Positions 4,964-37,578 of a DNA stretch of 64,000 bases are shown piece by piece. The notes beneath the pieces are model-generated. The model saw only the letters and a program-made list of their open reading frames with translations, was not told the DNA's origin and ran no database searches. This stretch comes from an uncultured Planctomycetota bacterium (lineage in GTDB: Bacteria > Planctomycetota > Planctomycetia > Isosphaerales > Isosphaeraceae). The DNA is taken from NCBI GenBank assembly GCA_963737655.1, contig CAVTTN010000002.1, positions 3,040,001 to 3,104,000 on the forward strand, in the 5' to 3' direction. A program made the translations under genes and the position numbers. Position 1 is the first letter of the stretch. Each line of letters opens with the position of its first letter.

Positions 4964-5583
4964 CGGCGTCTTCCCTCATCCAAGAGGGACGGTCCGTCTC
5001 CGGGTCAGCCCTCGTTCGTCGCGAGGAGAGATCCTGACCTTGAGGCGGAGCGTCTGGGGATGTCAAGTAGGGCGTGGGGCGATCGGCCCGGGGTGATCGA
5101 CTCAGCGAGAACCTTGTTCAGGACGAACCGCCCCAGGGGGGTAGGGAATCGGCTTCGATGTCCCATGCAAGTAGGGCAAATTATCGTCCCGCAGCAACAT
5201 GAATGCAAGAGGGCGGCGGACCCGATTCCCGCGGAGGGTACAGTGCCGATCCCCGCTCGACTCGCCGCAAACCGGGGATGGGCCGTGGGGGGCTTTCCCG
5301 GCGCCGGCCTCCCTTCCATGAGTGGCTCCGCCCGACGAGAAAAGGAACAGTCCCCGGAGAACGAGCGGGCCGGGTCATGCAGAATCGGGCCGATCCTGAT
5401 ACAGTCGTGGAGAGAAGGGCCGAGGCTCGCCCGGCCGCGAAGGGTTCACGGATAACCCCCCGGACGAGATCCGTCGGCTCGGCCGGGCACTGCGGAGTCC
5501 TGCCGCCGTCCGCTCGGGCCGTGTCGTGTCGTCGGGAAACCGACTCGGGGAGGCCGCTGCAGATGATCGGGAATCCCAGGCCG

Positions 5584-10466: not shown

Positions 10467-10723
10467 TTACAGCCATCTTGTGATGAATTCACAAGAGCGG
10501 AACGAAGTGTTCGAAACCGATCGGGGAAGATCGGTGGGGCGGCGGGGCATGGTGGCCCCTGGATGGGCATCCCTCGCGATCGTCGGGGTCGGGGTGTAGG
10601 CCGTCGGTCGAGCCAGCCGGAATCAGGCGCGGGTGTCGCGCTTGGGTCGCTTGCGCGCGCTGCCAGGGCTGTTTGACCAGGCCGGGGCGAAGTCGCTGAT
10701 CTCTCTACATTGAGGTGCTACCA

Positions 10724-13700: not shown

Positions 13701-16700
13701 CGGCCGCTCCGCCGGCCACGGACTTGCCGTTCGTCGGTCCGAAGCACGGCACGCTGGTCCTGAACGGCGACGGCTCGTTCACCTACATCCCCGCGGCGAA
13801 TTACGTCGGCGAGGACAGCTTCGTCTACTTCGCGTCCGACGGCGTCTACAGCGCGACCGATCCGAGCTCCCCGGCCGGTGCGGCCTCGGCTTACGGAGTG
13901 GTCCATCTGTTCGTCAACGCGACGTCCGAGAACCCGGTGGCGAGCGACGACTTCGTCACCACCCTGCAGAATACGGCCCTGACGTCGATCAACGTCCTGG
14001 GCAACGATTTCAGCCCCGACGGCCTTGCCCTGACGGCCGAGCTCGTGGCCGGCGCGACCCACGGGACCGCGACCCTCAACGGCGACGGCAAGACCTTCAC
14101 CTACACCCCGGACCCGGCCTTCCACGGCACCGACACCTTCACCTATCGCGCCGTGGACAGCAACGGCTACGCCAGCCCCATCACCACCGTGAGCATCGAC
14201 GTGCTCCAGGTGGACCAGAAGCCGGTGGCCAACAACGATTTCTACTCGACGAACGAGGAATCCACGCTCTTCGTGGACGCGCCGGGCGTGCTGGCCAACG
14301 ACACCGACCCCGACAACACGCCGGCCGACCCGACCGCGCAGACCCTCCGAGCGGTCCTGCTCCAGGGGCCGACGCACGGCATGCTGACCCTGTTCAACGA
14401 CGGCTCGTTCTCCTACACGCCGGACCCGCTGTTCAACAGCTCCGCCGCCAACGGCGGGGTGAAGGACAGCTTCATGTACGAGGTCTCCGACGGCCTGCTC
14501 TTCAGCGACCCGGCGACCGTCACGATCACCGTCAACGCGGTCGATCACGCCCCGATCGCCCGGGACGACGCCTATGCCTCGGCCGAGGGAGCCACGCTGA
14601 CCGTCCCCGTCACCGACGGCAAGGGAGTCGCCGTGGGCGTCCTGGCCAACGACACCGACCCGGACAACACCTCGACCAACACGGCCCCTCAGACCCTGAC
14701 CGCCGTGATCCTCAGCCAGCCTCTGCACGGGACCCTGGCCCTCGCCGCCAACGGCTCGTTCGTCTACACGCCGACCGATACCTCCTTCAGCGGCACGGAC
14801 TCGTTCACGTACCGGGCCTTCGACGGGACCCTGTACAGCGATCCGGCCACGGTCAACCTCTTCATCAGCTCCGTGAACCACGCCCCGGTGGCCGTCGCCG
14901 ACGCCTTCATCACGAACGAGGACGTCCCCCTGGTCGTCGCGGCCCCGGGCGTCCTCGGCAACGATTCGGACCCGGATAACACCCCGGCCGACCCGACCGC
15001 GCAGACCCTCAGCGCGATCCTGATCCAGGGCCCGGAGCACGGCACGATCGCCCTGGCGGCCGACGGTTCGTTCACCTACACCCCGGACCCGAACTACAAC
15101 AACGACGGCAAGAACACCGACTTCTTCACCTATCAGGTCTCCGACGGCCAGCTCCTCAGCGGGGTGGTTCGGGTCGACCTGACCGTCAACCCCGTCGCCG
15201 ACGCTCCGACGGCCGTGCCAAGCAGCTATACCGGGATCGAGGACACGAACCTGGTCGTCCCGGCCCCGGGTATCCTTCTGGGCTCGACCAACGTGGACGG
15301 CGGGACCCCGACGATCGTCCTCGACAACGGCCCGCAGCACGGGGCGTTCCTGGGCGGGGCGATCAACGCCAACGGCTCGTTCACCTACATCCCGAATCCG
15401 AACTACAACGGCACCGACAGCTTCACCTACCACCTGCTCAACCCGACCTCGGGCCTGACCAGCGATCCGGTGACCGTCACGCTGACTCTCCTGGCCACCC
15501 CCGACGCCCCGGTGGGGGTGCCCGACCCGATCGGGCCGGCGGGGTCGGCGTACACGACCCTCGAGAACGTGCCGCTGGTCGTCAACGACGGCGGCGTCCT
15601 GGCCAACGACATCAACGTCGACGGCGACGCGCTCCACGCCCAGCTCGTCACCGGGCCGGCGCACGGCAGCGTGGTCCTCAACAGCGACGGGACGTTCACC
15701 TACACGCCCGCCCCGTACTACAACGGGCCGGACAGCTTCACCTACGTCCCGGTCAACACCTCGCTGGCGGGGATGCCGACGCTGGTGAACCTCTCGGTGG
15801 TCGCGGTGCCGACGACGCCGACGGCCGTCGGCGACAGCTACTCGACCCTGGAGGACACGGCGCTGACGCCGGCCGCGCCGGGCGTCCTGGTCAACGACAC
15901 GTTCCCCGACGGTGCGCCGACGATCACGGTGGACAACCTCCCTCAGCACGGGACGCTGACCGGCGGGATCATCAACGCCAACGGCACGTTCACCTACACC
16001 CCGGCGGCCAACTATCACGGGCCGGACAGCTTCACCTATCACCTGACCAACGCCTCGGGAGAGACGAGCGCGTCGGTCACGGTCTCCCTGACGGTGATCT
16101 CGGTCCCCGACGCCCCGGTGGGGGTGCCCGACCCGATCGGGCCGGCGGGGTCGGCGTACACGACCCTCGAGAACGTGCCGCTGGTCGTCAACGACGGCGG
16201 CGTCCTGGCCAACGACATCAACGTCGACGGCGACGCGCTCCACGCCCAGCTCGTCACCGGGCCGGCGCACGGCAGCGTGGTCCTCAACAGCGACGGGACG
16301 TTCACCTACACGCCCGCCCCGTACTACAACGGGCCGGACAGCTTCACCTACGTCCCGGTCAACACCTCGCTGGCGGGGATGCCGACGCTGGTGAACCTCT
16401 CGGTGGTCGCGGTGCCGACGACGCCGACGGCCGTCGGCGACAGCTACTCGACCCTGGAGGACACGGCGCTGACGCCGGCCGCGCCGGGCGTCCTGGTCAA
16501 CGACACGTTCCCCGACGGTGCGCCGACGATCACGGTGGACAACCTCCCCCAGCACGGGACGCTGACCGGCGGGATCGTCAACGCCAACGGCACGTTCACC
16601 TACACCCCGGCGGCCAACTACTTCGGCCCGGACAGCTTCACCTATCACCTGACCAACGCCGCGGGCCAGACCAGCCCGTCGGTCACGGTCTCCCTGACGG

Positions 16701-18835
16701 TGATCGCCGTGGCCGACGCCCCGGTGGCCATGGACGACTCCTTCCAGACCCTGGAAGACACCCCGCTGGCGGTCAACGACTCCGGGGTCCTGGCCAACGA
16801 CACCAACGTGGACAAGGACACGCTCCACGCCAAGCTGGCCAAGGGGCCGCTGCACGGCAGCGTGGTCCTGAACAGCGACGGGACGTTCACCTACACGCCG
16901 TCGCTGAACTACAACGGGTCGGACTCGTTCACCTATTACGCGGTGAACACGTCCCTCTCCAGCGCCACCCCGGCGACCGTCACGATCGACGTGGTGGCCG
17001 TCCCCGACGCCCCCACGGCGGCCAACGACAGCTACTCGCTGCTGGAGGACACGACCCTGACCGTGCCCGCGCCGGGCATCCTCCTGAACGACACGAACGT
17101 GGACGGCGGGCTGCCGACCATCAGCATCGATAACGGGACGCTCCACGGCGGCCTGAACGTCGGCACCGACGGCAAGGTCACCTACGTCCCGATGCCGAAC
17201 TATTTCGGCACCGACAGCTTCACCTACCACCTGACCAACGCGGCCTCCGGGCTCACCAGCGGCACGGCGACGGTCACCCTGACGATCCTCCCGGTGCCCG
17301 ACGCCCCGGTGGCCATCAATGATGCCTATCAGACCAACGAGGACGTCCCGCTGGTCGTCAACGACTCGGGCGTCCTGGCCAACGACATCAACGTCGACAA
17401 GGACACGCTCCACGCCCAGCTCATCAACGGGCCGGTCCACGGCAGCGTGGTCCTGAACACCGACGGGACGTTCACCTACACCCCCGACCCGAACTACAAC
17501 GGGACGGACACGTTCACGTACCTCGCCGTGAACACCTCGCTGCCCAGCGCCTCGACGGCCACGGTGACGATCACCGTCCTGCCCGTCAACGATGCCCCGG
17601 TGGCGAACCCGGACACCTACAACACCGAGGAAAACCAGACGCTGACGATCCCGGCCCCCGGGGTCCTCGGCAACGATTCCGACGTGGAAGGGCCGGACAT
17701 CACGGCGGTCCTCGTCAACACGACCCAGCACGGGACGCTGTCTCTCAAGGCCGACGGCTCATTCGTCTACGTGCCCAACCCCGAGTTTACCGGAGTCGAT
17801 ACGTTCACCTACCGGGCGTTCGACGGCCAGCTCTACAGCCCGGTGACCACCGTCACGATCAACGTGGCGATGATCCCCGTGACCACGGTCATGCTCGACC
17901 CGGCCAGCGACACCGGGGTCTCGAACACCGACCGGATCACCAACGACACCACCCCGACGTTCTACGGGACGACCCGTCCCGACCTGACCGTCAAGCTCTA
18001 CGCCCAGCCGCTCGGCTCGTCCTCCGCCCCGATGCTCGTCGGGACGACCACGGCCGACGCCTTCGGCAACTACCGGGTGACCTCGAGCGCCCTGCCCGAC
18101 GGCCAGTATGCGTTCTCCGTGAACGTGTTCCGGCCCGACGGACTCCAGACCGGCGTGGCGATCAGCGGCGGAGACCTCCTGATCGACACCGTGGCCCCGC
18201 GGGTCCAGGGCGTCCAACTCGACCCGAAGACCGGCCAGGTCTACGTCGTCTACATCGACCAGGGTGGGGCGGGCATGGGCCAGGCGTCGATCACCGACGT
18301 CGCCAACTACGCCTTCGATAAGCTCTACACCCACGCCCCCCGCGCCTTCGCCGTCAGCAGCGTGACGGGCCTCAACAACAACATCGGATCGCCGACGGCC
18401 CCGCAGACCGTGGTGGTCAACGTGTTCAAGGGCAAGGGCCTGAAGCACGGTCGCTACCTCTTCGGGATCGTCTCCGGCGGCGTGACCGACGTGGCGGGCA
18501 ACCCGCTCGACGGCGAGTTCGTCAACGGCTTCCCCTCGGGCGACGGCGTCCCGGGCGGGAACTTCCAGTCCGAGTTCCTCAACAACGGCCACGACATCGT
18601 CAACGCGACGAATAGCGGTCAGTTCGTGCCCATCTTCTCGGCCTCGGCCGGCAAGGCGCCGAACATCGGCTACACCATCGGCAAGACGCCCACGGCCGTC
18701 CCGTCCGGGCCGGTGACGGCGGCGAGCGCTAAGAAGGGCCCCACGGCCAAGGCGGCCCGGGTCGTCAAGCAGGCGTCGGTCTCGCCGAGCGTCCACAAGC
18801 TGTCGGTCGCCCATCGGGCCCGCAAGGGCCGCTGA
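10724..18835 (+). CDS. Giant surface adhesin: autotransporter-associated beta-strand repeats, tandem-95/cadherin-like Ig repeats, C-terminal Ig-like domains
   Basis: GAGGT RBS before ATG 10724; IEDLEARRLLA planctomycete export motif; KxGxGTLxLxGxNTYxG repeats; about 14 units of PVAxxDxY...GVLAND...P.HG...DGSFTYTP...GxDSFTY; DTGVSNTDRITNDTTPTF Ig-like domain. Confidence 0.9.
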   Translation: MSRDSKSGLFTRSSRGRTTTRRASPAKRLAFGLSPKIEDLEARRLLATLTWTGTLAAGNGAMNMFDSGTNNVSTNWDTNTFPVSGDTLVFPDAAQYKGPIVNDTAADTPYVLHFTGSGFTINGNEIVLATSASLKDMSTTTPLNTLATPLQLEANPTITVSTTGHTLSLTGAISQSGGTFGLAKNGTGTLSFDGSAVNTYAGNTAILNGILQVDRTVAGAAIPGASPLVIGSGSNGVSTAQLVVPSTATTTQFGSGLVATIHTDGHLEIDSASSETLASLTEDGQASVNLGNASKTSGLSLGTLSSSATTSQISSSGGVLSLNGKVSALTGATTISADVELNNAARSIVVSTGASLTISGVISDGTVTPSGFALTGGGTLTLTGANTFTGTANDSASTLALAQAGGFPSLLGPLVVGGASGLVTATGGQLSSGQPLTVNTGGTFRLLGAATEDATPISVTGTLDTGTDPTASIGATGLMLNGGAKVIGSGTLSLLGDLTVTGGTAAISSLVQLNDPARLFSIATGATLNASGVISDGSTSPSGILQSGGGKLVLSGANTYTGTTEVLTGTLSLANPTGTSILGPLVVGDPTTTTSALATSSGGQIAVGEPLTVNSGATFRLKNGSESLGATTVTAGTITINGTSLALTPGSLLTVNGGTIGGTGALLLAENVTSDGTYGPSTISAASVVLASPSTTFTVLPGAATSTGDLIISSPISDGTPPFSSLIKAGTGRLVLTGASTYSDVTRPDGTSVTGGVLEVDGSITSNVLLDGGTLAGTGTVGNVTFATPTIIDPGTTPGSNGTLTVNNLHLDSTDTYHVDINAGGNDEIIVKGTVILDPPVLDIALNFDPALGQVFTLIDNLGTDPIDGTFLVKTTNTSNVSVDVPFKQIDANRYLLNPSADPTILRGTQFILNYAGGTGNDLTLMVVAPPVAVDDSYALPENAGQPGNSPSSPPVFTVPAFAGVLANDVDTNHLGLQAQLVSPPYQPPGSNPAAPPATDLPFVGPKHGTLVLNGDGSFTYIPAANYVGEDSFVYFASDGVYSATDPSSPAGAASAYGVVHLFVNATSENPVASDDFVTTLQNTALTSINVLGNDFSPDGLALTAELVAGATHGTATLNGDGKTFTYTPDPAFHGTDTFTYRAVDSNGYASPITTVSIDVLQVDQKPVANNDFYSTNEESTLFVDAPGVLANDTDPDNTPADPTAQTLRAVLLQGPTHGMLTLFNDGSFSYTPDPLFNSSAANGGVKDSFMYEVSDGLLFSDPATVTITVNAVDHAPIARDDAYASAEGATLTVPVTDGKGVAVGVLANDTDPDNTSTNTAPQTLTAVILSQPLHGTLALAANGSFVYTPTDTSFSGTDSFTYRAFDGTLYSDPATVNLFISSVNHAPVAVADAFITNEDVPLVVAAPGVLGNDSDPDNTPADPTAQTLSAILIQGPEHGTIALAADGSFTYTPDPNYNNDGKNTDFFTYQVSDGQLLSGVVRVDLTVNPVADAPTAVPSSYTGIEDTNLVVPAPGILLGSTNVDGGTPTIVLDNGPQHGAFLGGAINANGSFTYIPNPNYNGTDSFTYHLLNPTSGLTSDPVTVTLTLLATPDAPVGVPDPIGPAGSAYTTLENVPLVVNDGGVLANDINVDGDALHAQLVTGPAHGSVVLNSDGTFTYTPAPYYNGPDSFTYVPVNTSLAGMPTLVNLSVVAVPTTPTAVGDSYSTLEDTALTPAAPGVLVNDTFPDGAPTITVDNLPQHGTLTGGIINANGTFTYTPAANYHGPDSFTYHLTNASGETSASVTVSLTVISVPDAPVGVPDPIGPAGSAYTTLENVPLVVNDGGVLANDINVDGDALHAQLVTGPAHGSVVLNSDGTFTYTPAPYYNGPDSFTYVPVNTSLAGMPTLVNLSVVAVPTTPTAVGDSYSTLEDTALTPAAPGVLVNDTFPDGAPTITVDNLPQHGTLTGGIVNANGTFTYTPAANYFGPDSFTYHLTNAAGQTSPSVTVSLTVIAVADAPVAMDDSFQTLEDTPLAVNDSGVLANDTNVDKDTLHAKLAKGPLHGSVVLNSDGTFTYTPSLNYNGSDSFTYYAVNTSLSSATPATVTIDVVAVPDAPTAANDSYSLLEDTTLTVPAPGILLNDTNVDGGLPTISIDNGTLHGGLNVGTDGKVTYVPMPNYFGTDSFTYHLTNAASGLTSGTATVTLTILPVPDAPVAINDAYQTNEDVPLVVNDSGVLANDINVDKDTLHAQLINGPVHGSVVLNTDGTFTYTPDPNYNGTDTFTYLAVNTSLPSASTATVTITVLPVNDAPVANPDTYNTEENQTLTIPAPGVLGNDSDVEGPDITAVLVNTTQHGTLSLKADGSFVYVPNPEFTGVDTFTYRAFDGQLYSPVTTVTINVAMIPVTTVMLDPASDTGVSNTDRITNDTTPTFYGTTRPDLTVKLYAQPLGSSSAPMLVGTTTADAFGNYRVTSSALPDGQYAFSVNVFRPDGLQTGVAISGGDLLIDTVAPRVQGVQLDPKTGQVYVVYIDQGGAGMGQASITDVANYAFDKLYTHAPRAFAVSSVTGLNNNIGSPTAPQTVVVNVFKGKGLKHGRYLFGIVSGGVTDVAGNPLDGEFVNGFPSGDGVPGGNFQSEFLNNGHDIVNATNSGQFVPIFSASAGKAPNIGYTIGKTPTAVPSGPVTAASAKKGPTAKAARVVKQASVSPSVHKLSVAHRARKGR
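15499..16710 (+). repeat. Near-identical 606-bp tandem duplication (two Ig repeats per unit)
   Basis: ccgacgccccggtgggggtgcccgacccgatc starts at 15501 and 16107; copies nearly identical for more than 500 bp. Confidence 0.95.
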
Positions 18836-19145: not shown

Positions 19146-20849
19146 ATGTATGCTCATGTTTTATGGAAACGGGTCGCGGGATCGTGGATCGCCTCGGGCT
19201 TGATCCTTGGGGCTTCGGCCGGAACAGCCCGATCGGACGACGAGAACGGGACTCAGACGCCGCCGCCGGACGTCCCCGCGCAGGCGCCTGCTCTGGAAGA
19301 ACGACTCCGTCGGCTCGAAGAGGTCAACCGCAAGCTCCTCGACCAGTTCGAGAAGGTCTCTTCGCAGAACGAGGCCCTCTCCAAGAAGGTCCAGGACCTG
19401 TCGAAAAAGCTCTCCGACGAGGAAAAAAAGGACAAGGAGAAGGCCGAGAAAGACAAGCAGGCCAAGGACGGCAAGGACAAGGAGAAAGACGACAAAGAGG
19501 AGAAAGAGAAGTCCGAAGGGGGCTCGGGCGGGAGCGGCGGCTCCGGCGGAGGGTCGTCGAGCGGATCGGGCGGGGCCAAGAAGCGAGAGGCCCAGGACGT
19601 CGGCAACCGTCACCTCGGCAAGGCCAAGCTGAAATCGTATTACGACTACGACCGCACCGGATACGAATTCGCCACCGAGGACGACGAGTTGCGTCTCCGC
19701 TTCCGAGGCATGGTCCAGGCCGATGCCCGGATCTATCAGCAGGCGAATCAGGACCCCGTCAACGGCGGCTTCTTCCTTCCTCGGACCCGGTTCTATTTCG
19801 ATGGCCGGATCACCAAGCCCATCGAGTATCAGCTCTCGATCCAGAGGGGCTACACCAGCCTGGACGTCCTGAATGCCTATCTCGATTTCAAGTACGACGA
19901 ACGATTCCAGCTCCGCGCCGGCCGTTTCAAGACTCCGTATACTTACGAATACTATAAAATCAATGTCTACAACCTCCTGGCCCCGGAACGCTCGCTCTTC
20001 AACGTGAATTTCCAGGGGAATCGCCAGGTCGGCCTGATGGCCCACGGCCAGGTCTTCAACAAGAAATTGGAGTACGCGGTCGGGGCGTTCGACGGCCCCC
20101 GAAAGTCGTACGCGGACACGAACAACTCGCCCGATGTGATCGCGTTCCTGAACTTTCGGCCGTTCGACGGGTCGGGGTCGTTCCTCGAGAACCTGAACGT
20201 CGGCGGCTCGGTCGATTTCGGCAACGAGAACAACCCGACGAACCCGGCCGTCCTGCGGACCTCGGTCCAGGAGTCGTCCGGCAATGCGTCGAGCGCCAAC
20301 GCGGGAGTGCCCATCCTGGCGTTCAACCAGGGGGTCCGCGAGAGGGGGGATCGTGCGCTCTGGGACCTCCACGCGGTCTATTATTACAAGGGCCTGAGCC
20401 TCCTGGGATCGTGGGATGGCGGGTTCGCCGATTATGCCGTCTCGGGGACCGGCCGGAGTCCCGTCCACCTGCCGGTCGGCGGCTATTATGTGCAGGCCGG
20501 CTACATCCTCACCGGCGAGACGATCAATGAACGGACCATGATCGACCCGCTCCACCCCTTCGACCTTCGACCCGGCAAGTTCGGCCTCGGGGCGTTCGAG
20601 GCGACGGCCCGGTTCAGCGAGCTCTCGCTCGGCAAGTAGGTTTTCACCCAGGGACTGGCCGACCCGAACCTCTGGACCAACCAGGCGTCGATGGTCGATG
20701 TCGGCATGAACTGGTATCTGAACCGGTTCGTGAAACTCTACTTCGACTGGGAACACGTGATGTTCGACCAGCCGGTCTATTACCGTCCTGGTCCGGCCCT
20801 CCAGAAGACCAGCGACCTGTTCTGGCTGAGGCTCCAGCTTTACTTCTAG
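19146..20849 (+). CDS. OprO/OprP phosphate-selective porin family, interrupted by in-frame TAG at 20637-20639
   Basis: Signal peptide, coiled coil, QADARIY, RAGRFKTP, PERS motifs. The same frame continues after the TAG: VFTQGLADPNLWTN...GMNWYLNRFVKLYFDW...DLFWLRLQLYF-stop, ending in the C-terminal Phe typical of beta-barrels. Confidence 0.85.
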
Positions 20850-27499: not shown

Positions 27500-27693
27500 C
27501 GTCGCCTCCCCCTCCCGATTCCTCGGATCACCGTCGAAGTTTAACATTCGCTGGAGCCTTCGGGAAGCGAGTCCTGGGCCGGTCGATGGTCGGGGGGGAA
27601 TTCTTTTGCAATCGCGCGTCGGCGGCCCGAGAATGCGGAGGCCCTTCGAGGGGCGACGTAACCCGTGCCGAGGTCAGGCTCTCCAGGAATTCG

Positions 27694-30345
27694 ATGATGA
27701 ACCGAAATGTGCGTTCGATGGCCCTCGCGGTCGCCCTGGCGGTCGCGTGGGGTTCGGGTGTCTTATCGCCGCGGGTTGCGTATGCCCAGATCAACCCCGA
27801 GGCCCTGAGGGCGGGCAAGGACGCCACGGCGTTGGTCGAGTCGGAGGACGAGGAAGGGGTCGCGGCCTCGGCGTTCTGCATCGATCCCGGGGGCCTCTTC
27901 GTGACCAGCGCCCACGCGGCCGAGGCCGGCTCCCGGTTCCGCCTGATCCTCCATGCGGGGCGGCCCACGCAGGTCACGGTGAAGGCCCGGGTCGTCCGGT
28001 CCGACAAGAAATCGGACCTCGCCCTGCTCCAGGCCGAGGGGGCCGGGCCGTTCCGGCCCCTGGAGCTGGGCCGGGACGACGAGCTGATCGAGACCATGGA
28101 CGTGGTCGCCTTCGGCTACCCGTTCGGCAAGGCCAAGGGCAGGCTGAAGGGGGAGGACGTCCCGAGCGTGAGCGTGAACACGGGGCGGATCACCTCGCTG
28201 CCGTCGCCCGGCGGGAAGCTCTCGGCGATCCAGCTCGACGTGGTGCTCAACCCGGGGAACTCGGGCGGGCCGGTCCTGGACCGGGCGGGGAAGGTGATCG
28301 GGGTGGTCCAGGGGGGCATCCGGGGCTCGGGGGTGAATTTCGCCGTCCCGGTCGGGAGGCTGGCCGAGATGCTCGAATCCCCCGTGGTCCTCCTGGAGGC
28401 CCCGGGCCTGAGCTTCGCCACGAGGCAAGCGCCGGCGGACTGGACCGTCCGCGTGATCCCCAAGGCCAGGGCCGAGGGGGCGACGGTGGGGATCGCCCTG
28501 TCGGTCGATGGCGGGGAGGCCCGGACGGTGGAGGCGAAGCCCTCGGGGCGAGGCGACGGCACGTTCGTGGCCCGGGTCGCCCCGGTGCCGGGCGGCGCCC
28601 CCGCGGCGGCGACCCTGGCGATCCGGGCCGAGTTCCCGGCCGGGCAGGTCGAGGGACGGATCGCCGACCGCGCCGTGACGGCCGGGGGCCGCACCCTCCG
28701 CCTCTCCGAGGTCGCCACGATCCGGACCGGGCCGCCCCCGACCCTGGTCCTCCACGAAGGGGCCGAGGTCCCCGCCGGACCGGCCGGGATCGGGGCCTCG
28801 ACGATCGACCTGGGCGGGCCCTCCGTGACGGTGGACCTGGCGAAGGCGTCCCGGGTCGAGCTGGAGAGGCCGAGGGCGGCGTCGGCCTCGTTGCGGTGTA
28901 CCGTGACCGTCCGCAAGGGGGGGACGCCGGTGGCGACCCTCGAACGGGGCTTCGAGCTGACCGAGGCGGGCGGCTCGACGGGCGCCCCGGGCGAGTCCGG
29001 CCCTCTCGCCGCGATCAAGTCGCCGGCGCTCGACTCCGACCGGGTCGAGATCAAGCTGCCCGGGGCCGTCACCGACGTCGTCCAGGCCGCCGGGGGCCGC
29101 CTCCTCCTCCTGGTCATGAGGGACCTGAAGAAGCTCGCCGTCTTCGACGTGAACGCCGGCAAGGTCGTCCGCCTCCTCGGCCTGCCGGCGGACGACGCCC
29201 TGGTGGTCGCCGGGTCGAGGAAGTTCCTGGTCCTCTCCACGTCCCAGGGGATCATCCAGCGCTGGGACCTCGCGACCCTGGAGCGGGAGCGGGTCTCTCC
29301 GATCCCCATCGAGGGCTCGGTCTGGGCCCTGGCGATGGGATCGGCGTCGAACGGGCCGGTCATGTACTTCGCCACGGCCGAGGGCCGGAACGGCTTCGGG
29401 GCCGCCTGGTTCGGGTTCCTCGACCTGGAGGGCCTGAGGCCGATCCGGGGCTTCACCCAGCTCAACGTCTGGATGGGCAATCGTCAGAACGTCCAGGGCG
29501 AGGCCCAGCAGGCCGGGAGGCTCACGTCGCCCCACTTCTCCCAGCCGAACGAGCGGGTCCAGCTCCGCGCGTCGCCCGGCGGTGAGGTGTTCGCGGCGTG
29601 GTCGATGACCCACTCGCCCGAGGGGATGCTCGACTTCATCTGGAAGGACAGGAAGACGCTGGAGACCGGCTACGAGCATTCCGGGGTGGGGTACCTCGTG
29701 CCGGGCCCCGACGCCCGGACCCTGTTCACCCGGAACGGCCTCTTCGGCCTGGACCTGAAGCCGGCCCGCGGCGACTCGCCGAAGATGGGGGCCCTGGTCC
29801 CGTCCACCTCGCCCGGATTCTTCGTCGGGCTCCAGGGCAAGAAGGCCTCGCTCTTCCTGCCCGGGAACACCTCCCCTCTGGTCGCGATCGGGGACCTCGC
29901 CGAGCTCGAACCCGCGGGGTCGCCGCCGCAACAGTACGGCCACCAGAACGCCGACCCGATCGCCGACAAGAGGGTCGTCTTCATCGTCGCGGCCGACCTC
30001 CTGGTGACGATCCCCAGGGGCCAGAACCTGATCGTCCTCCGCCGGGCGAGGCCCCTGGACCTCCTCCGCGCCTCCCGGATCGACTACCTCTTCGTCCAGT
30101 CGGTCCCGATCGCCGAGGCCGAGCGCGGCAAGGCCTATGAGTACGCCCTGAAGGTCCAGTCGCGGAAGGGCGGGGTGAAGTACGAGCTGAACAGCGGCCC
30201 GGACGGCATGGCGATCTCCCCGGAAGGCAAGCTCTCCTGGAACGTCCCCGGGGACTTCGCCGAGGACGAGGCCACCCCGGTCGTCCTGGTCAAGGACGCC
30301 GGAGGGCAGGAGGTCTTCCACACCTTCACGATCCGGGTGCGGTAG
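27694..30345 (+). CDS. Secreted trypsin-like (S1C) serine protease with long C-terminal region and putative Ig domain
   Basis: Signal peptide; triad motifs TSAHA, DLALL, NPGNSGGP; C-terminal SGPDGMAISPEGKLSW Ig-like domain. Confidence 0.85.
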   Translation: MMNRNVRSMALAVALAVAWGSGVLSPRVAYAQINPEALRAGKDATALVESEDEEGVAASAFCIDPGGLFVTSAHAAEAGSRFRLILHAGRPTQVTVKARVVRSDKKSDLALLQAEGAGPFRPLELGRDDELIETMDVVAFGYPFGKAKGRLKGEDVPSVSVNTGRITSLPSPGGKLSAIQLDVVLNPGNSGGPVLDRAGKVIGVVQGGIRGSGVNFAVPVGRLAEMLESPVVLLEAPGLSFATRQAPADWTVRVIPKARAEGATVGIALSVDGGEARTVEAKPSGRGDGTFVARVAPVPGGAPAAATLAIRAEFPAGQVEGRIADRAVTAGGRTLRLSEVATIRTGPPPTLVLHEGAEVPAGPAGIGASTIDLGGPSVTVDLAKASRVELERPRAASASLRCTVTVRKGGTPVATLERGFELTEAGGSTGAPGESGPLAAIKSPALDSDRVEIKLPGAVTDVVQAAGGRLLLLVMRDLKKLAVFDVNAGKVVRLLGLPADDALVVAGSRKFLVLSTSQGIIQRWDLATLERERVSPIPIEGSVWALAMGSASNGPVMYFATAEGRNGFGAAWFGFLDLEGLRPIRGFTQLNVWMGNRQNVQGEAQQAGRLTSPHFSQPNERVQLRASPGGEVFAAWSMTHSPEGMLDFIWKDRKTLETGYEHSGVGYLVPGPDARTLFTRNGLFGLDLKPARGDSPKMGALVPSTSPGFFVGLQGKKASLFLPGNTSPLVAIGDLAELEPAGSPPQQYGHQNADPIADKRVVFIVAADLLVTIPRGQNLIVLRRARPLDLLRASRIDYLFVQSVPIAEAERGKAYEYALKVQSRKGGVKYELNSGPDGMAISPEGKLSWNVPGDFAEDEATPVVLVKDAGGQEVFHTFTIRVR

Positions 30346-30400: not shown

Positions 30401-33400
30401 TCAGCCGGGAGTCGCCCATCGCTCGCGAAGGCCTGCCAGCCACTCGGAGGAGGGCAGGCCGTAGGGGCGGAACTTCTCCATCCGGGCCTGCTCCTCGCTG
30501 GCGAACAGGGCGCGGCTGGCCCGAGCTTGCTGGCCAGGGGGGAGTCGATCAGGTTGCTGGAGTCGCCGGGGCTCGATCTGGAAGAGAACGCGGAGCTCGA
30601 ACTCGCGGAGGGCCTGGCGGTCGAAGGCGCGATTGGCGTTGTTCAGCGAGTCGCACCAGATCAGGACGTGGACGCCGACCGGCGGGCCGTCTCGGAGGAG
30701 GGTGCCGAGGAGCTTGCCGGGGTTCGCCGGCTTGTCCTCGCCCCTCCGGGAGAAGCTGAAGTCGTCGTCCGACTTCCTCAGGTCGCGGAACCTCGGCATG
30801 TCGTGGATCAGGACGAAGCTCGGGGCCGATTCGGCGCCTCCTCCCTGGCGATCGGCCACCTCGGCCGAGGCTTCGGTGAGGATTCGGGCCGCGTCGCGGA
30901 TCCCGCCGACGGAGACCGAGTGCGGGAGGACCTCGGCGAGCTTCGCCAGGGTGCCGAAGAACGGCGAATCTTCGGGCGTCCCATCAAGGATGTAGAACTT
31001 CGAGGCGAGCGGCACCTGCGCCCCCAGGCCGAGGATGGCGGCGAACATCAGGCCGATGGCCATCTCGTCGTTCTGGCCGATGATCAGGAGGTTCGCGCCC
31101 CCTGGGCCCGGAACGTGGCGGCGGTGGGGTCCTTGATCGCCACGGCCTCGCCGAGCCAGGCGTGGGCGACACGCCCTCCGGCCGTGGCGAGCTCGCCCCT
31201 CGTCGCGAGGAAGGCCGGATGGCGGGCGAGGTCCGACGGCTTATTGCCTTCGAAGACGATCTGGTCCTTGCGGTCGAAGCCTTGCTGGCGGGCCATCTCG
31301 GCGAGCGTCTTGAGGTAGGCCTCGCGGCGGGCGTCGGGCAGCCAGACGACCTGGAAGATGTGGTTGCCCTCGCTCGATCCGTTGGAGTCGTTGTAGATCG
31401 CCTCGCCGGGCCTCGACAGGTTCCTCGCGGCGGCGTTGTCCTCGTTCAGGATCAGCTGGGCGTCGGCTTCCGAGCACTGGAGGGCCACCCGGATGGCCAT
31501 CTGCCCGAGCGTGCTCCTCGCGAGCGAATAGGCCCCGCTGAGGGTCTGTGAACCGAGGATCACGTGGACGCCGAAGGCCCGGCCTTGCCGGACCAGGCGG
31601 TCAAGGAGCAGGCTGGATTCCTGGGCGAGCTTGTCGTCCTCGACGAAAAATTCCTGGAACTCGTCCACGATGAACAGGATGCGAGGCATCGGCTTGCCGG
31701 TGGCCTGGCGATATCCGGCCACGTCCTGGACGCCGAGGTCCCGGTAGATGTCGCCCCGGGTCTTCAGCTCGACGTCCAGCCTCTGCAACACGCTGAGGCC
31801 GAACTCGCGCTCGCTCTCGACGGCGATCACCCGGGCGTGGGGCAGGCGGTGGGTGGCGTAGGTCTTGAACTCGACGCCCTTCTTGAAGTCGAGGAGGTAC
31901 AGCTCGATGTCGTCCGGGCTGTAGATCAGGGCCGCGTTGGTGATCAGGGCGTGCATCAGCGTCGATTTACCGGAACCGGTCCGGCCGGCGATCAGGACGT
32001 GCTGCGAGGTCCCCTTGCCCAGCTCCATCGGCTGCAACTTGGTGGCGCCGGCGCGGCCGAGGGGGACGCTCACCAGCGATCGGCTGTCTCCCTTCCAGTA
32101 GTCTTCTCGCTTCGGCGCGATGACCTCGAACGGCACCTCGACGCGGTTGGCCTCCCTCGCCGCGGTGCCGACGGCGTGGAGGAGCTTCGTGAATCCGTCT
32201 CCCGGCGGAGGCGAGTCCAGCGAGAGCGGAAAGGCCTGATAATTCGGGTCGCGGAGGACGAACTTGCCGTTGTGCCAGACGAGCTTCGCGGAGTGCATCT
32301 CCAGGTCGCGGCGATCGGTATTCACCGGGAAGGGCTGGGCCGTGTCGATCCCCAGGACGAGGTAGACGCCGCACCGGGGGCCGCTCTTGGCGATCGCCGC
32401 CAGCCTCTTGGACGACGATTCGGCGAACCCGGTGGGGAAGTCGGCGATCACGAGGACCCGGTACGGCTCGGCGACCTCGCCGGCCTGGGTGTTGTACTGC
32501 TCGATCGTGGCGAACTCGTTGCGGAGGTACCGCTGGATCACGGTCTCGATGTGGCTGTTGATCTCGGCGAGCCGGGCGTCGATGTCCTGAGGGTCGGTCC
32601 AGATGTGGCCGTTGACCAGCGCCTCGGAATAATCGGCCAGGTGCATGAAGGCGGCGAACGAACGGCCGAGGCCGACCGGGTCGATGATCGTGAAGCGGAC
32701 CTTGCCCGGCGGCAGCCCGGTCAGGAACCGGAGCATCACGGCCTGCATCGCGTCGATGGCCTTCTTGCGGCCCTCGTCGCCGGAGAACTCGACGATCACC
32801 GACGAGGTGTCGGGGAAGTCGAGAAGGGCGGGCAGGAGGAACTCGTCGGGGGCCATCGCGCGGAGCCGATCGTCCTTCGAGGGGCCTCCGGGGAAGCTCT
32901 CCAGCTTCAGGAGGACCTCGCCGATCCTCAGCGCCGGAGGCAGGCCGGGCACGGGCTTCCACGGCGTCCCGTTGGCCCGGGCCCAGTCCGGGAACCGGGG
33001 ATCGACGGCCGATCGCACCCGGGCGATCTCGGCCGAGAGGGCGTCGATGCCGGCCTTCCAGACGTTGGCCAGCGCGTCCCAATCCGCCTTGCGACGGGCC
33101 TCCGCCTCGGCGATCGCGGAGCGGTAATCGGCGAGGGCCTTCTCGGTGGCCGAGGTGTGTTCGGCGGCGATCTCGGCGGATCGGCGCGTCTCGGTCTCGG
33201 CGGCCTGGCGGAGGAGCTTATCCCGGGCCTCGACGATCTCGGCCCTCTGGCCCGTGGCCTTTTCGTCCGCCTCGCGGACCTTCTCCAGCTTCGTCCGATC
33301 GGCGTTTTCGCGGATTCGGTCGCGATCGGCGGTGGCCTTGTCCATCTCGGCGACGCGGCGGGCCGTGGCCTCGGCGACCCGTCGGTCGTGGACCTCGGCG

Positions 33401-34344
33401 ATGAAGGGTTTGGCGGCGGTCGCCAGCGCCTCGGCGTCGGCGAGGGCCTGGAGCAAGGGGAGCCGCTCCCGGGCGATGCCGGTCCTGGCGCCTCGGACGA
33501 TCAGGGTCCGTACCCCCCAGCCGATGGCCCCGGAGACGATCACGCCCAGGATCGAGCCGACGATCGGGCCGAGGAAGAAGACGGCCGGGGCGATCAGCAG
33601 GAGGGCGGGCAGCACGAACGCCCAGGCGATCCTCGGCCCCCGGAACGACTGGGCGACCGACAGCCCTTCGAGCTTCAAAAGGGCCGCGTCGGCCGCCACG
33701 ATGGCCGCATGGAGGGGCGGAAAGGGGTCCTCGGCCGGGTCGATCGTGATCGGGGTAATTTCGGCCGCCTGCGGGACGCGATACCCCTTGTAGAGGCCCA
33801 GGATGATCCCGGTGGCGTCCTGGAGGACCTTGAGCGTCTCGCGCTCGGCGGCCAGGAGCTTTAGGTGCTCGGCCCGCCACTCCTGGGCGCCTTTCTCGGC
33901 GGTCTCGAAGACGGCCGACGCCTCCCATCGGGCGGACTCGAACCGCGATTCGGCCCCCTCGACGTCCCGGCGATGGCGGGCGAGGGCCGTCTTCCGGCTC
34001 TTCTGATGCTCGGCCTCGACGGTTGCGGTCCTGGCCTGGAACTGCGAGTTGGCGCCCGACCGGATCTTGGCGACCAGGGCCCGGAACTCGGCGGTCTCGG
34101 CGTCCCGTCGGGCGTCGGCGGCCTGGATCGCGGCGGATCGGGCCTCCTCGGCCCGGCGGATTCGGGCCTCGAAGACGGCCGCCGTTTTGGTCTCGGCCTC
34201 GGCCCGGGCGGAGGTCAGCCGGGCGAGCTCGCCGGGGATCTTCGACCATCGGGCGTGGATGGACGGGCCGGCGGGGTGGCCTTCCCCGTGATGGGGTTCC
34301 GTCCGGGGCGTGGCCCCGGCGTGGGCGAGTTCAGGAGCGGCCAT
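30401..34344 (-). CDS. FtsK/SpoIIIE-domain ATPase, EssC/EccC-like (about 1314 aa after indel correction)
   Basis: Coiled coil-2TM-coiled coil, degenerate P-loop domain, intact Walker A GRTGSGKS, LDFKKGVEF, Walker B ILFIVDEFQE, RQGRAFGVH, RPGEAIYN. A frameshift in a G5 run (about 31100) joins ORF 30401-31063, a second degenerate ATPase domain (LLRDGPPVGVHVLIW). Confidence 0.88.
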
Positions 34345-34347
34345 GGG

Positions 34348-34560
34348 TCAGGAGCATTCCCGGTAGATCCGTGAGAGGACGTCGCAGAGCGCCTGCATCG
34401 CCCGGAGGGTGGCCGTGGCCTGGGATTCCATCGGAATGATCCGCCTCTCCTCGAAGTCCTGGCGGACCACGTCCCGCCAGCCGTCGCCGGTCTCGTCCCA
34501 GCGGGCCAGCAGGGTCTTGGTCGCGTTGCGAAGCTGGGCGGTGCCGGAGCCGACATACAT
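34348..34560 (-). CDS. Small WXG100-like helical hairpin protein (70 aa)
   Basis: Helix-GWRD-helix; 1-bp and 3-bp gaps to its neighbours. Confidence 0.75.
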   Translation of the reverse strand: MYVGSGTAQLRNATKTLLARWDETGDGWRDVVRQDFEERRIIPMESQATATLRAMQALCDVLSRIYRECS

Positions 34561-34561
34561 C

Positions 34562-35209
34562 TCAGCGTCCCTCCTCGACCGGAGCGGGCCCGGCCTCCTC
34601 GGCCTGTTGCGTCGCGGGTTCGGCCTCGGCCTTGGACGCCGGAGGGGCCGCGATCGTTCCCGTCGTCGAGACGGCCGCCGGGGCGGACGACGCGCCGACC
34701 GCGGGCCGGGCCGGCTGGGTCTCGGGCGGGGCGATCCGCGAGTATTCTTCGATGGCCACGATCATCCGATCGACCATCGCGATCGATTGCTGGAGTTCGT
34801 ATTCCAGCATGTCCGCCAGGGGCCGGGCCCGGCCGTCGTACTCGCCCACGGCCTGTTCCAGCTGGGGAATCCAGCGGCGGACGGTCTCCAGCTTCTCCTC
34901 GGCCTCCTCCAGGTGGACCTTCGCCTTGCGGACCGCCTCGCGCTGCTCGGAGTCGTGGGCGTTCGAGCCGTCCTTCGCGCCCAACTGCTTGCGGAAGAGC
35001 TCGGCCTTGGCGTTGGAGAGGTCTTCCTTCCTCCTCTTGATCTCGGTCTGCCAGTGGATGCGCTGGTCGTGGGTCAGCCAGTCGATGCACCGGCGGATCT
35101 CCATCTCCATCGCGCCGAGCGCATGCTTGGCGTCGTCGCCGAAGAGGGCGAGCGACTCTCGGACGGCCTCCAGGACGTCGACCGACGAGACATCGACGGG
35201 CAGTGCCAT
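34562..35209 (-). CDS. Coiled-coil protein, WXG100-like N-terminus, Pro/Ala-rich tail (215 aa)
   Basis: All-helical (VDVSSVDVLEAVRESLALF...), GGGAGG RBS, in operon with WXG100 and FtsK. Confidence 0.75.
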   Translation of the reverse strand: MALPVDVSSVDVLEAVRESLALFGDDAKHALGAMEMEIRRCIDWLTHDQRIHWQTEIKRRKEDLSNAKAELFRKQLGAKDGSNAHDSEQREAVRKAKVHLEEAEEKLETVRRWIPQLEQAVGEYDGRARPLADMLEYELQQSIAMVDRMIVAIEEYSRIAPPETQPARPAVGASSAPAAVSTTGTIAAPPASKAEAEPATQQAEEAGPAPVEEGR

Positions 35210-35234
35210 CGGGATCGGGCCTCCCCTGGGCTAG

Positions 35235-35507
35235 CTAGCGTTGCCTGAGGTATTCCTCGGCACGGTCGGCCTTCCGGACGAGGAACGGGATGTGCTCATC
35301 GGTGACCTCGATGAATCGCGTGATCACCTGCATGGTCTGCTCGAATTCCTCGGTGAACTTCTCGTGCTCGCGGTCCCGCCAGCTCTGCGAGAGGTTCATG
35401 AGCTGGCCGTGGAGCGCCGTGAGGCTCTCGGAAAGCTCCATGTTGAACTGCTTGAGGTTGTTGGCGAACCGGCGGAGCTCCTCCGGATCGACATTGGCCT
35501 GGGGCAT
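35235..35507 (-). CDS. WXG100/ESAT-6 family protein (90 aa, WRD variant)
   Basis: MPQANVDPEELRRFANNLKQF...LSQSWRDREHEKFTEEF...; EsxA-like VDPEEL start, central Trp, size; GGAGGG RBS. Confidence 0.9.
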   Translation of the reverse strand: MPQANVDPEELRRFANNLKQFNMELSESLTALHGQLMNLSQSWRDREHEKFTEEFEQTMQVITRFIEVTDEHIPFLVRKADRAEEYLRQR

Positions 35508-35617
35508 GGGAGGTCCCTCCGACCGGCCTGGGCTCGCGATGGGGCACGACCCTTCCCAGGCTATCCGTCGCGGAGGCCGATGTAAAGCGACCGCCGTTGG
35601 ATGCATGGCCCGCATCC

Positions 35618-37578
35618 TCATGTCGAGTGCATTCTTCCAATCCCCATCGCCTTGCGGATCGCTTCGAGGGCCCTCGGGTCCTCCAGCCCCGTGAGGTCGC
35701 CGGCCGGCTCGCCCAGTGCGGAAGCCCGGATCGCCCTCCTCACCACCTTGCCGCTCCGAGTCTTCGGCAATTCGTCGAGGAAGACCACGCGAGACGGCGC
35801 GAACGACTTGCCGAGGGCCTCGGCGACGACGCCTCTCAGCTCCTCCATGAGCCGGCTCGCTTCGAACATCGGGACCTTCACCACGACGAACGCCCAGACG
35901 GCCTCCCCCTTGATCGCGTCGGGCACGCCCACGGCGGCGGCCTCGGCCACCCAGGGATGGCCGGTCAGGGCCGATTCGATCTCCGCCGGGCCGACCCTCT
36001 TGCCCGAGACCTTGATCGTGTCGTCGCTCCGGCCGTGGAGGAACCACTGGCCGAACTCGTCCACCGAGGCCCAGTCGCCGTGCGCCCAGACGCCCGGCCA
36101 TCGCGACCAGTACGCGGCGCGATACCGCTCGGCGCGTTCCAGAACCCCCGGGTCATCCCCGGCCAGGGCTTCCGACACACCAGCTCCCCGACCTGCCCTC
36201 GGACCGATTTCCCTTCGGGATCGACCACGTCCACGGCCATCCCCAGGCTCGGGCCGCCGAGCGAGCCGGGCTCCAGGCGATCGGTCGGGAACGGCGACAG
36301 GAAGCATGCCCCGACCTCGGTGCCCCCGGAGAAATTCATCACCGGGCATCGGCGTCGGCCGACCGTCTCGAAGTACCAACGCCACGGGCCCGGGTTCCAC
36401 GTCTCGCCCGTCGAGCCGAGGATTCGCAGGGAGGCGAGGTCGTGCGAGAGGACCGGCCCGTCCCCGTGCTTCATCAGGGATCGGACCAGAGTGGGAGAGA
36501 CGCCCAGGATCGTCACGCGATGCCTGGCGACGATCGACCACAACCGATCGACGTCCGGGAAATCCGGCACGCCTTCATACAAGACGATCGTCCCGCCCAT
36601 CGCGAGCCCGCCGACGACCTCCCACGGGCCCATGATCCAGCCCATGTCCGTGAACCAGAAAAGTCGGTCCTCCGGCGTCAGATCGACCTGGTGGGCGACC
36701 TCCTGGGCGATCTTCGCGAGGAACCCGCCGTGGACGTGGACGGCGCCCTTCGGCCGTCCGGTGGTCCCGGAGGTGTACGCGATCAAGAATGGATCTTCCG
36801 AACTCATCGATTCGTTCGGCGCGTCGTCCGGGGCGGCCTCCGCGAGTTCTTCGAGCCAGGAATCCCGGCCCGAGCGCATGGAAACCGGGACGTTCGCACG
36901 GCGGACGACCAGGACATGGCGGACCGTCGGGCTGGAATCGGCGGCGAGGTCCGCCACGTCCTTCAAACGAATGATCGCGCCCTTGCGGAAGAATCCATCG
37001 GCCGTGACGAGCACGCAACTGCCCGAGTCGCGGAGCCTCTCGGCCACGGCCTCGTGACCGAATCCCGAGAAGATCGGCAACGCGATGGCGCCGATCCGGG
37101 AGACGGCGAGGAAGGCGGTGACGACCTCGGGGATCATGGGCAGCATCAAGGCCACGCGGTCCCCCCGGCCGACTCCGAGAGACTTCAATACCGAGGCGAC
37201 CCGGCATGTCTCGGCCCGGAGTTCTCGATAGGAGAACGTGCGAACCGGGCCGTCCTCGCCTTCCCAGATCAGGGCCGACCGGTCGCCTCCGGGCGAGTCG
37301 GCATGGCGATCGAGGCAGTTGTGAGCGACGTTCAACCGCCCCCCGACGAACCATCGGGCCCATTCCGGGCCGTCCGATGCGTCGAGCACGCGCTCATAGG
37401 GCTCGAAGAAGTCGATCGGCAGTTCCTTGACCACGGCATCCCAGAACCATTCGATGTCTTCAACCGACCGGAGCCGCAACTCGTCCACCGTCGCCAGGCC
37501 GAGCCGGCGGGCGAACCGCGAGACGTTGCAGCCTTCAACCATTTCGGGGGGAGGCGTCCAGGCAAACGGGGCGTCCAT
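35618..37578 (-). CDS. AMP-forming acyl-CoA synthetase (acetate/acetoacetate-CoA ligase family), frameshift near 36135
   Basis: WFVGGRLNVAHNCLDRH, YTSGTTGRPKG, TDMGWIMGPW, SGGTE, HGDW, GRSDDTIKVSGKR, LPKTRSGK. Confidence 0.9.

Follow-up and report, generated by a model that had tools for sequence, protein, structure and literature searches.

We analysed a window of 64,000 nucleotides from an uncultured Planctomycetota bacterium of the family Isosphaeraceae (assembly GCA_963737655.1, contig CAVTTN010000002.1, positions 3,040,001 to 3,104,000; positions below count from the first nucleotide of the window) and found a conserved operon of four genes on its minus strand at 30401-35507. The genes encode a 90-amino acid (aa) WXG100-family protein (wxg90), a 215-aa helical protein (cc215), a 70-aa protein (hp70) and a membrane ATPase of the FtsK/SpoIIIE family. 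In our reading the operon is real and belongs to a class that combines a solitary WXG100 gene with a three-module FtsK-like ATPase, it likely specifies a minimal type VII-like translocase of the cytoplasmic membrane, and the break in its ATPase gene is an assembly indel; we put the probability of this reading as a whole at roughly 50%. An earlier note on this DNA, made from the sequence alone, had described four tight minus-strand genes, and our analysis of open reading frames (ORFs) gave the same arrangement, with intergenic gaps of 25, 1 and 3 bp. It was also borne out that one tight operon joins a WXG100 protein to an EccC/EssC-like membrane ATPase, and reading this pair as a minimal type VII-like core is reasonable and in keeping with the literature.

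Domain architecture of the ATPase

The whole ATPase was analysed with an intact orthologue (locus L006, 1318 aa) and a 22-row alignment. The protein begins with a coiled coil (about aa 1-230), which is followed by a two-helix membrane hairpin (about aa 237-283) and by a second coiled coil of about 175 aa that extends to about aa 460. The two coiled coils resemble each other (E = 3.7e-6), a similarity to which the usual caveat for coiled coils applies. The hydropathy peak lay at aa 237-265, and the hydrophobic helix pair was conserved in position across the aligned orthologues. Three P-loop-like domains come next, namely a degenerate D0 (about aa 463-749), an active FtsK/SpoIIIE domain D1 (about aa 750-1037) with the Walker A motif GRTGSGKST, and D2, of which this reading frame contains the start. 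The Pfam family PF01580 matched the ATPase only at aa 758-936 (E = 5.3e-30).

Comparison of the domains by hhalign showed that D2 is homologous to D1 (probability 95%, E = 3e-8), with GQNxEAALG in place of the GKTGSGKST of D1 and no Walker A lysine. D0, which has no P-loop, matched D2 weakly (E = 0.0012) and gave E = 0.11 against D1. A Walker A motif (G..GSGKS, invariant) was accordingly present only in the middle one of the three domains.

A sequence search of the PDB with the ATPase was led by EccC of T. curvata (E = 3.7e-32), EccC5 and YukB, and FtsK followed at about 1e-10. We then compared a structural model of D0-D1-D2 from the orthologue (853 aa, pLDDT 81) with solved structures. It matched T. 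curvata EccC (4nh0) over all three domains and about 960 columns (E = 5.8e-30), and the next fold matches were the D2-D3 structures of EccC and EssC, with the FtsK and TcpA motors appearing later at about 1e-9. The two transmembrane (TM) helices and the tandem FtsK-like P-loop domains agree with the EccC/EssC layout, but in those proteins catalysis falls to the first nucleotide-binding domain (D1), which comes after a domain of unknown function (DUF), and here to the middle one of three. A Pfam scan detected no FHA domain of the kind found at the N-terminus of EssC, the coiled coils being present instead. Judged by profile alignments and the predicted model, the ATPase is an EccC/EssC-like three-domain fold with only the middle P-loop intact.

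The same searches bear on whether the ATPase could be a DNA translocase of the FtsK, TraB or TcpA kind, acting in segregation or DNA transfer with the small proteins as accessories. Its active domain does belong to the FtsK/SpoIIIE family, and the FtsK and TcpA motors matched at about 1e-10; EccC and EssC, however, matched better by 15-20 orders of magnitude, and the tandem three-domain layout is that of secretion ATPases. Neither an FtsK alpha nor an FtsK gamma domain was detected in the ATPase, and the genome has a canonical FtsK and an FtsK_alpha-bearing paralogue elsewhere. We therefore regard a role in DNA translocation as very improbable.

The WXG100 protein

The wxg90 protein matched PF06013 over aa 5-81 with 40.6 bits (cut-off 27.3; E = 3.1e-10), while its score with the narrower TIGR03930 (35.7) remained under the cut-off of 44.85. 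When a profile of 18 orthologues was searched against the PDB, the best match was H. pylori HP0062 (3fx7; E = 1.2e-9, full length), followed by B. anthracis EsxB and then by S. aureus EsxA and S. agalactiae EsxA. The alignments with HP0062, B. anthracis EsxB and S. aureus EsxA ran end to end, and full-length alignment was obtained with the solved hairpins 3fx7 and 4j42. The canonical W-x-G turn was not found; all 18 orthologues have W43-R44-D45 at this place, and HP0062 carries the same W-R-D variant (PMC3397514).

Conservation among the 18 orthologues was high, with 30 invariant alignment columns. The last 17 residues, PFLxRKAxRxEEYLxQR, were almost invariant, a pattern expected of a recognition signal. 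With a size near 100 aa, an alignment to WXG100 hairpins and linkage to an FtsK/SpoIIIE ATPase, encoded 1.2 kb further downstream in the operon, wxg90 fits the family plan of a hairpin protein that lacks a signal peptide. On sequence evidence it is the only demonstrable WXG100 member among the three small proteins.

The two other small proteins

The earlier note had counted three WXG100-like genes, a number that was not supported: beside the clear case of wxg90 (40.6 bits), hp70 is weakly similar to the family and cc215 is a different, long hairpin. An AlphaFold2 model of cc215 (16-row alignment; mean pLDDT 79.4, 129 residues at 90 or above) consists of one hairpin with helices at 8-80 and 84-159, then a disordered Pro/Ala/acidic tail at about 166-215. 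As modelled, this two-helix hairpin has 150 residues, unlike the 100-residue WXG hairpin. No family was assigned to cc215 from Pfam or NCBIfam, and its comparison with the WXG100 profile of wxg90 by hhalign gave no match (E = 0.06). A Foldseek search of the PDB with the model returned only generic long coiled-coil hairpins (among them HlyD, chemoreceptor, SMC arms and YscO; E of 0.06 or more).

The cc215 family proved to be large, with 2,940 representative clusters at E <= 0.001 in an exhaustive profile search. Among the best 150 representatives, 11 span 338-371 aa; these longer forms were found by the exhaustive search and had been missed by a word-index search. We scanned the 14 longest of the best 150 against Pfam, and 10 of them (P0074, P0077, P0096, P0100, P0112, P0113, P0127, P0130, P0142 and P0146) had a C-terminal Imm33-like domain (PF24719). 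Imm33-like domains are immunity-type domains of polymorphic toxin systems. The cc215 copy in the window ends in the disordered tail only and has no toxin domain.

For hp70, an alignment of 25 orthologues showed invariant residues at L10, W21, W28 and D30. Its similarity to wxg90 was weak: the hhalign alignment, in which W-x-D and an F line up, had a probability of 7.8% (E = 0.0044). No match to hp70 was found in Pfam or NCBIfam, and its profile retrieved only designed helical proteins among PDB sequences. The nearest Atlas clusters were unnamed 70-aa proteins from Planctomycetota and Verrucomicrobiota. A complex prediction for wxg90, hp70 and cc215 (residues 1-168) is evidence neither way, as a control that kept the partner cc215 scored as high as the real set.

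Conservation and synteny of the operon

We examined the distribution of the ATPase in 61 genomes belonging to the family and class of the window, a sample that counts the source genome itself. A strong orthologue (best E <= 7e-83) was present in 53 of them; five others had FtsK-level matches only and three had no match. Within the family of the window, 35 of 36 genomes carried the orthologue. It was also found in 51 of 401 genomes sampled evenly over the phylum, including genomes outside the class of the window. Several relatives (G003, G004, G017, G024, G033 and G036) had a second ATPase copy.

A pattern scan with one genome per species then yielded at least 599 stretches, at least 585 of them encoding wxg90 relatives, from which 80 loci were kept for neighbourhood analysis. 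These loci were named as Isosphaeraceae, Gemmataceae, Pirellulales, Thermoguttaceae, Planctomycetaceae and, in one case, Phycisphaerales, and the listed loci included cultured carriers (Aquisphaera insulae, Paludisphaera soli, Singulisphaera sp. and Gemmata sp.). One contig among these otherwise planctomycete matches (L072, CAZFGM010000009.1), from a metagenome-assembled genome labelled Alcaligenaceae, encodes a wxg90 relative at 67% identity and is probably mis-binned.

Among the 80 loci, cc215 was present in 76, hp70 in 70 and the ATPase in 70, and many of the missing genes fell at contig ends. All four genes occurred together in 66 loci, and in every one of these 66 the order and strand were identical, so that the survey of neighbourhoods which the note had proposed recovered its gene order. 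The four-gene arrangement is far beyond chance. In a separate set of 29 ATPase loci from the genome search, 18 had all three small genes upstream and three had less than 300 bp of upstream sequence. In two others (L021 and L033), 1.5 kb of upstream sequence contained no detectable homologues of wxg90, cc215 or hp70; these loci and the extra ATPase copies may represent diverged paralogous modules.

The conserved unit ended with these four genes. De novo clustering of ORFs of at least 90 aa within 8 kb on either side found no further conserved family in more than 12 of the 80 loci, after setting aside clusters (79 and 27 loci) whose ORFs apparently overlap the four genes in alternative frames. 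The flanking genes of the window itself recurred in 1-3 of the 80 loci. The module is therefore self-contained by synteny, as the note had proposed.

The frame break in the ATPase gene

The note had described the ATPase as a membrane protein of the FtsK/SpoIIIE family. The membrane hairpin and the PF01580 match agree with this description, but the note missed that the gene is not one open frame in this assembly. The first frame stops at 31084 after 1086 codons, and the sequence continues in another frame for 220 aa. One extra G, or a -1 slip, at 31098-31102 joins the two frames as ...FRAQGGANLLIIGQ..., which agrees with the orthologue consensus ...FRxQxGSNLLIxGQN.... In related genomes most orthologues are a single ORF of about 1300-1400 aa, and tblastn showed that both halves are contiguous there, well conserved and free of further stops.

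Other genes of the window are also broken. The acyl-CoA ligase gene (35618-37578, minus strand) is split near 36130, with AMP-binding and AMP-binding_C in different frames, and one C added at CC near 36130 rejoins them. A hybrid histidine kinase at 5203-8421 (plus strand), in which DUF4118-PAS-GAF-HisKA is followed by HATPase_c and receiver motifs, is spread over three frames and implies at least two more breaks. In total, at least three frame breaks besides that of the ATPase were found, in two other genes of the window. At the breaks that we read at base level, those of the ATPase and the ligase, the frame is restored by a single G or C added to a short G/C run. The source genome consists of 3 contigs and 7.63 Mb with a marker completeness of 87.7%, and related few-contig genomes with 58-74% completeness have the same ATPase gene in pieces.

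Given the breaks elsewhere in the window, and an assembly with few contigs yet only 87.7% completeness, the frame break is very probably an assembly indel, and the organism would then make a full-length ATPase. Programmed -1 frameshifting at the G run was considered and rejected, since the orthologues are uninterrupted and the other window genes are broken as well. Alternatively, the break could be real and the module in decay, with an ATPase pseudogene that has lost most of its third domain. The stop at 31084 and the change of frame in the assembly are what such a pseudogene would present. Yet the additional breaks within the same 64 kb, their repair by single G/C additions in the ATPase and the ligase, the good conservation of both ATPase halves with no further stop, and the fragmentation of this gene in relatives of low completeness all argue against decay, which we consider improbable.

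Locus features and genomic context

The features of the operon are listed in Table 1. The ATG start of wxg90 at 35507 is common to all 17 extracted orthologues, at the motif M-x-Q-A.

Table 1. Features of the four-gene operon, with positions in the window
Feature	Position	Strand	Evidence
wxg90, 90-aa WXG100-family protein	35235..35507	-	PF06013 match
cc215, 215-aa long helical hairpin with disordered tail	34562..35209	-	AlphaFold2 model
hp70, 70-aa protein, weakly WXG-like	34348..34560	-	alignment of 25 orthologues
ATPase, N-terminal part, 1086 aa	31084..34344	-	PF01580 match
Frame break of the ATPase, run of five G	31098..31102	-	frames compared with orthologue consensus
ATPase, C-terminal part, 220 aa, other frame, most of D2	30401..31063	-	tblastn, hhalign
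GGAGGG, Shine-Dalgarno-like, 8 nt upstream of the wxg90 ATG	35515..35520	-	read from sequence

The neighbours named in the note were confirmed. A convergent trypsin-like protease (PF13365) at 27586-30345 (plus strand) flanks the operon on one side, and an AMP-binding acyl-CoA ligase (35965-37578, same strand as the operon) lies upstream of it. Both were rejected as parts of the system because each was conserved beside the module in 1 of 80 loci. The G+C content is uniform over the operon and its flanks.

The note had also placed the DNA in a diderm planctomycete. Consistent with this assignment, the window holds planctomycete-specific families and a gene of the Porin_O_P family, and its nearest relatives are Isosphaeraceae. 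The porin gene (19146-20639), of the outer-membrane type, comes after a gene at 10715-18835 (plus strand) for a 2706-aa protein with 14 Big_9/cadherin-like repeats and PATR repeats.

Search for other type VII components

In the whole genome we found one PF06013 match and three FtsK-domain loci, namely the ATPase of the module, a canonical FtsK and an FtsK_alpha-bearing paralogue. The paralogue (L003, G000:C2:1364836-1368351) has FtsK_alpha and FtsK_SpoIIIE domains in an open frame of 1029 aa, and ORFs of similar length match it in related genomes. Searches with TIGR03919, TIGR03920, TIGR03926 and TIGR03929 gave no genome match at E <= 0.01 for EccB, EccD, EssB or the EsaA N-terminus; EccE, MycP and EssA were not searched. 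For the components covered, and in a genome that is 87.7% complete, this result agrees with the statement in the note that the further membrane parts of a type VII secretion system (T7SS) are not recognisable.

A YukD-like ubiquitin-fold gene of 103 aa was detected at another site (L115, 8434-9544; G000:C2:6876433-6877543), followed directly by a gene like those of ubiquitin-conjugating enzymes (UQ_con, E = 3.5e-12). The two genes form a bacterial operon for ubiquitin-like conjugation that has no relation to the type VII-like module, and the YukD-like gene was rejected as a T7SS part because it adjoins the E2-like gene.

Comparison with described systems

The novelty implied in the note did not stand, as the class is already in print. 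Zhang et al. (2012, Biol Direct 7:18; PMC3482391, Table 1 footnote 6) count planctomycetes among the lineages with a solo WXG gene and a three-domain YueA-like ATPase, of which only the middle domain is active, and name these 'mobile versions of T7SS'. The module has the single WXG100 gene, the three HerA/FtsK domains with a P-loop only in the middle one and the planctomycete host, and on the sequence evidence its architecture is exactly that of the class outlined in the footnote. Two differences are apparent. The 'mobile' label contrasts with a planctomycete module that is near-universal in the family and has native G+C, and cc215 and hp70 go unmentioned in that footnote.

Related pairs have been discussed in other reports. 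A 2023 review treats Gram-negative pairs of WXG100 and FtsK/SpoIIIE genes as unconfirmed as secretion systems (PMC10765036). Uchiyama et al. (2016; PMC4978471) regarded WxG together with FtsK as a minimal type VII set, described WxG/FtsK copies in a TerY-P island with HP0062 and HP0066 as conserved paralogues, and reported WXG-ATPase relatives together with nucleases in an H. pylori island. Sutcliffe (2011), as cited in PMC6471051, listed Cyanobacteria, Lentisphaerae, Proteobacteria and Verrucomicrobia. Our literature searches on WXG100 or type VII secretion in Planctomycetota and Verrucomicrobia and on HP0062 found no work on the function of the planctomycete module, in line with the claim of the note that it lacks functional characterisation in Planctomycetota. 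As far as these sources go, the locus belongs to a class that comparative genomics has already recognised and that is functionally uncharacterised, and the locus by itself adds little to it.

Among individual proteins, HP0062 is the closest solved relative of wxg90. They share the W-R-D turn, an acidic E-[ED]-Y-L C-terminus and a link to an FtsK/SpoIIIE ATPase. HP0062 comes from another phylum, however, and the comparison covers HP0062 itself.

The T7SSa of Actinomycetota (EsxA/EsxB, EccC, EccB, EccD, EccE and MycP) has the same type of WXG100 substrate, and its EccC, a two-TM ATPase with tandem FtsK-like domains, is the best match to the planctomycete ATPase in both sequence and fold. The systems differ in that neither EccB nor EccD was found here and in that one WXG100 gene takes the place of the EsxAB pair. 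EccC has a DUF and three domains with the first one active, whereas the planctomycete ATPase has three P-loop-like domains with the second one active and long coiled coils flanking its TM hairpin.

The T7SSb of Bacillota (EsxA, EssC, EsaA, EssA, EssB and EsaB) resembles the module in having a monocistronic WXG100 gene of the homodimer type, and wxg90 matches EsxA of S. aureus and S. agalactiae. The planctomycete ATPase differs in having no FHA domain, and EssB and EsaA were not found in the genome. T7SSb exports LXG toxins with Lap helper hairpins, and cc215 with its small hairpin partners recalls these LXG-Lap pre-secretion complexes; unlike LXG proteins, cc215 has no toxin domain and no detectable similarity to a known family. 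In its monocistronic homodimer type, wxg90 resembles the sagEsxA-type subfamily (PMC3935865).

We also searched plasmids, and relatives of the ATPase at 29-34% identity were present on 6 of 72,556, from Rhodococcus (two), Caballeronia, Deinococcus, Embleya and Helicobacter. The mobilizable plasmid pSBC2-5 of Caballeronia sp. SBC2 (L116, 26055-33983) carries a distant WXG100 and FtsK-like pair within an island, in the order VWA, WXG100, three hypothetical genes (436, 113 and 76 aa), FtsK-like ATPase, CARF, VWA, PP2C, Ser/Thr kinase and AAA. The intervening genes of pSBC2-5 did not resemble cc215 or hp70 (E = 0.1 to 0.66). From this one comparison, cc215 and hp70 do not appear to be common to the proteobacterial version.

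Proposed mechanism and alternatives

Of the mechanisms that we can predict for the module, export across the inner membrane is the likeliest. The ATPase would form a membrane-anchored hexamer, and the invariant tail at the C-terminus of wxg90 would be recognised by its degenerate D2, by analogy with the binding of the EsxB signal by D3 of EccC (4n1a). Export into the periplasm would then be powered by D1 through hydrolysis of ATP; the predicted exported species is a WXG100 dimer, which cc215 and hp70 would probably accompany as co-substrates or adaptors. We see no dedicated step for the outer membrane. A more specific version of this mechanism is that the EccC-like ATPase alone is the translocon, in which a hexamer of its Gly/Ala-rich hairpin forms the pore and exports a bundle of wxg90, cc215 and hp70 to the large planctomycete periplasm. 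In this version cc215 would be a modular carrier with a C-terminus ranging from disordered to Imm33-like. We offer it tentatively, as a possibility short of even odds.

Several observations weigh against the translocase interpretation. Of the family models named in the note, PF06013 recognised wxg90 and PF01580 the ATPase, but with the NCBIfam equivalog models of EccC and EssC (TIGR03924, TIGR03925 and TIGR03928) the ATPase scored far under the cut-offs (102.6 against 509, 81.7 against 346.6 and 96.5 against 778, respectively), and the single active domain alone matched. Its catalytic layout is unlike that of EccC/EssC, the first domain being dead, the middle one live and coiled coils standing where those proteins have FHA domains or a short N-terminus, and hardly any periplasmic loop joins the two helices of its membrane hairpin. 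Searches for further known type VII membrane parts (EccB, EccD, EssB and the EsaA N-terminus) found none, the sole YukD-like match sits 3.8 Mb away in its ubiquitin-like/E2 operon, and nothing accounts for passage across the outer membrane. The ATPase gene is also broken in the assembly as given. For cc215, the immunity-type Imm33-like ends of 10 of the 14 long relatives scanned fit a cytoplasmic adaptor better than an exported substrate. Finally, relatives of the WXG-ATPase pair occur elsewhere in cytoplasmic conflict or signalling islands, with a TerY-P triad, CARF and AAA on pSBC2-5 and with nucleases in H. pylori (PMC4978471).

Some of these observations suggest that the module could instead be a non-secretory, membrane-tethered conflict or stress machine of the cytoplasm, whose ATPase remodels or senses the helical bundle of small proteins, or a nucleic-acid or protein target. 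The Caballeronia pair lies beside VWA/TerY, PP2C, Ser/Thr kinase, CARF and AAA genes, the H. pylori relatives are found with nucleases, and 10 of the 14 long cc215 relatives scanned have the Imm33-like domain. The ATPase is moreover predicted to be nearly all cytoplasmic, including its roughly 400 aa of coiled coil, and neither the neighbourhoods nor the searches for EccB, EccD, EssB and EsaA revealed a channel or outer-membrane partner. The planctomycete module, however, has no conserved conflict-type neighbours, and its presence in 35 of 36 genomes of the family, with flanks of the same G+C, is not what a typical defence island shows. Among characterised proteins, those closest to wxg90 and to the ATPase are secretion substrates and secretion ATPases. 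The small genes on the plasmid are unlike cc215 and hp70, and therefore the plasmid context may not transfer to Planctomycetota. On balance we regard the conflict or stress role as unlikely, though it is the main alternative, and export across the cytoplasmic membrane remains our preferred reading.

Implications

To our knowledge, the only bacteria whose type VII secretion is understood are the monoderm Bacillota and the mycolate Actinomycetota, in which several membrane proteins surround the ATPase. A vertically kept four-gene version in hundreds of species of diderm planctomycetes raises the question of whether an EccC-like ATPase can translocate alone, and of what WXG100 proteins would do in the periplasm. 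Cultured carriers exist, and the question of export is therefore testable. If the ATPase alone is the translocon, the module would be a self-sufficient and possibly ancestral T7SS in a diderm, operating without EccB/D/E or EssA/B/EsaA.

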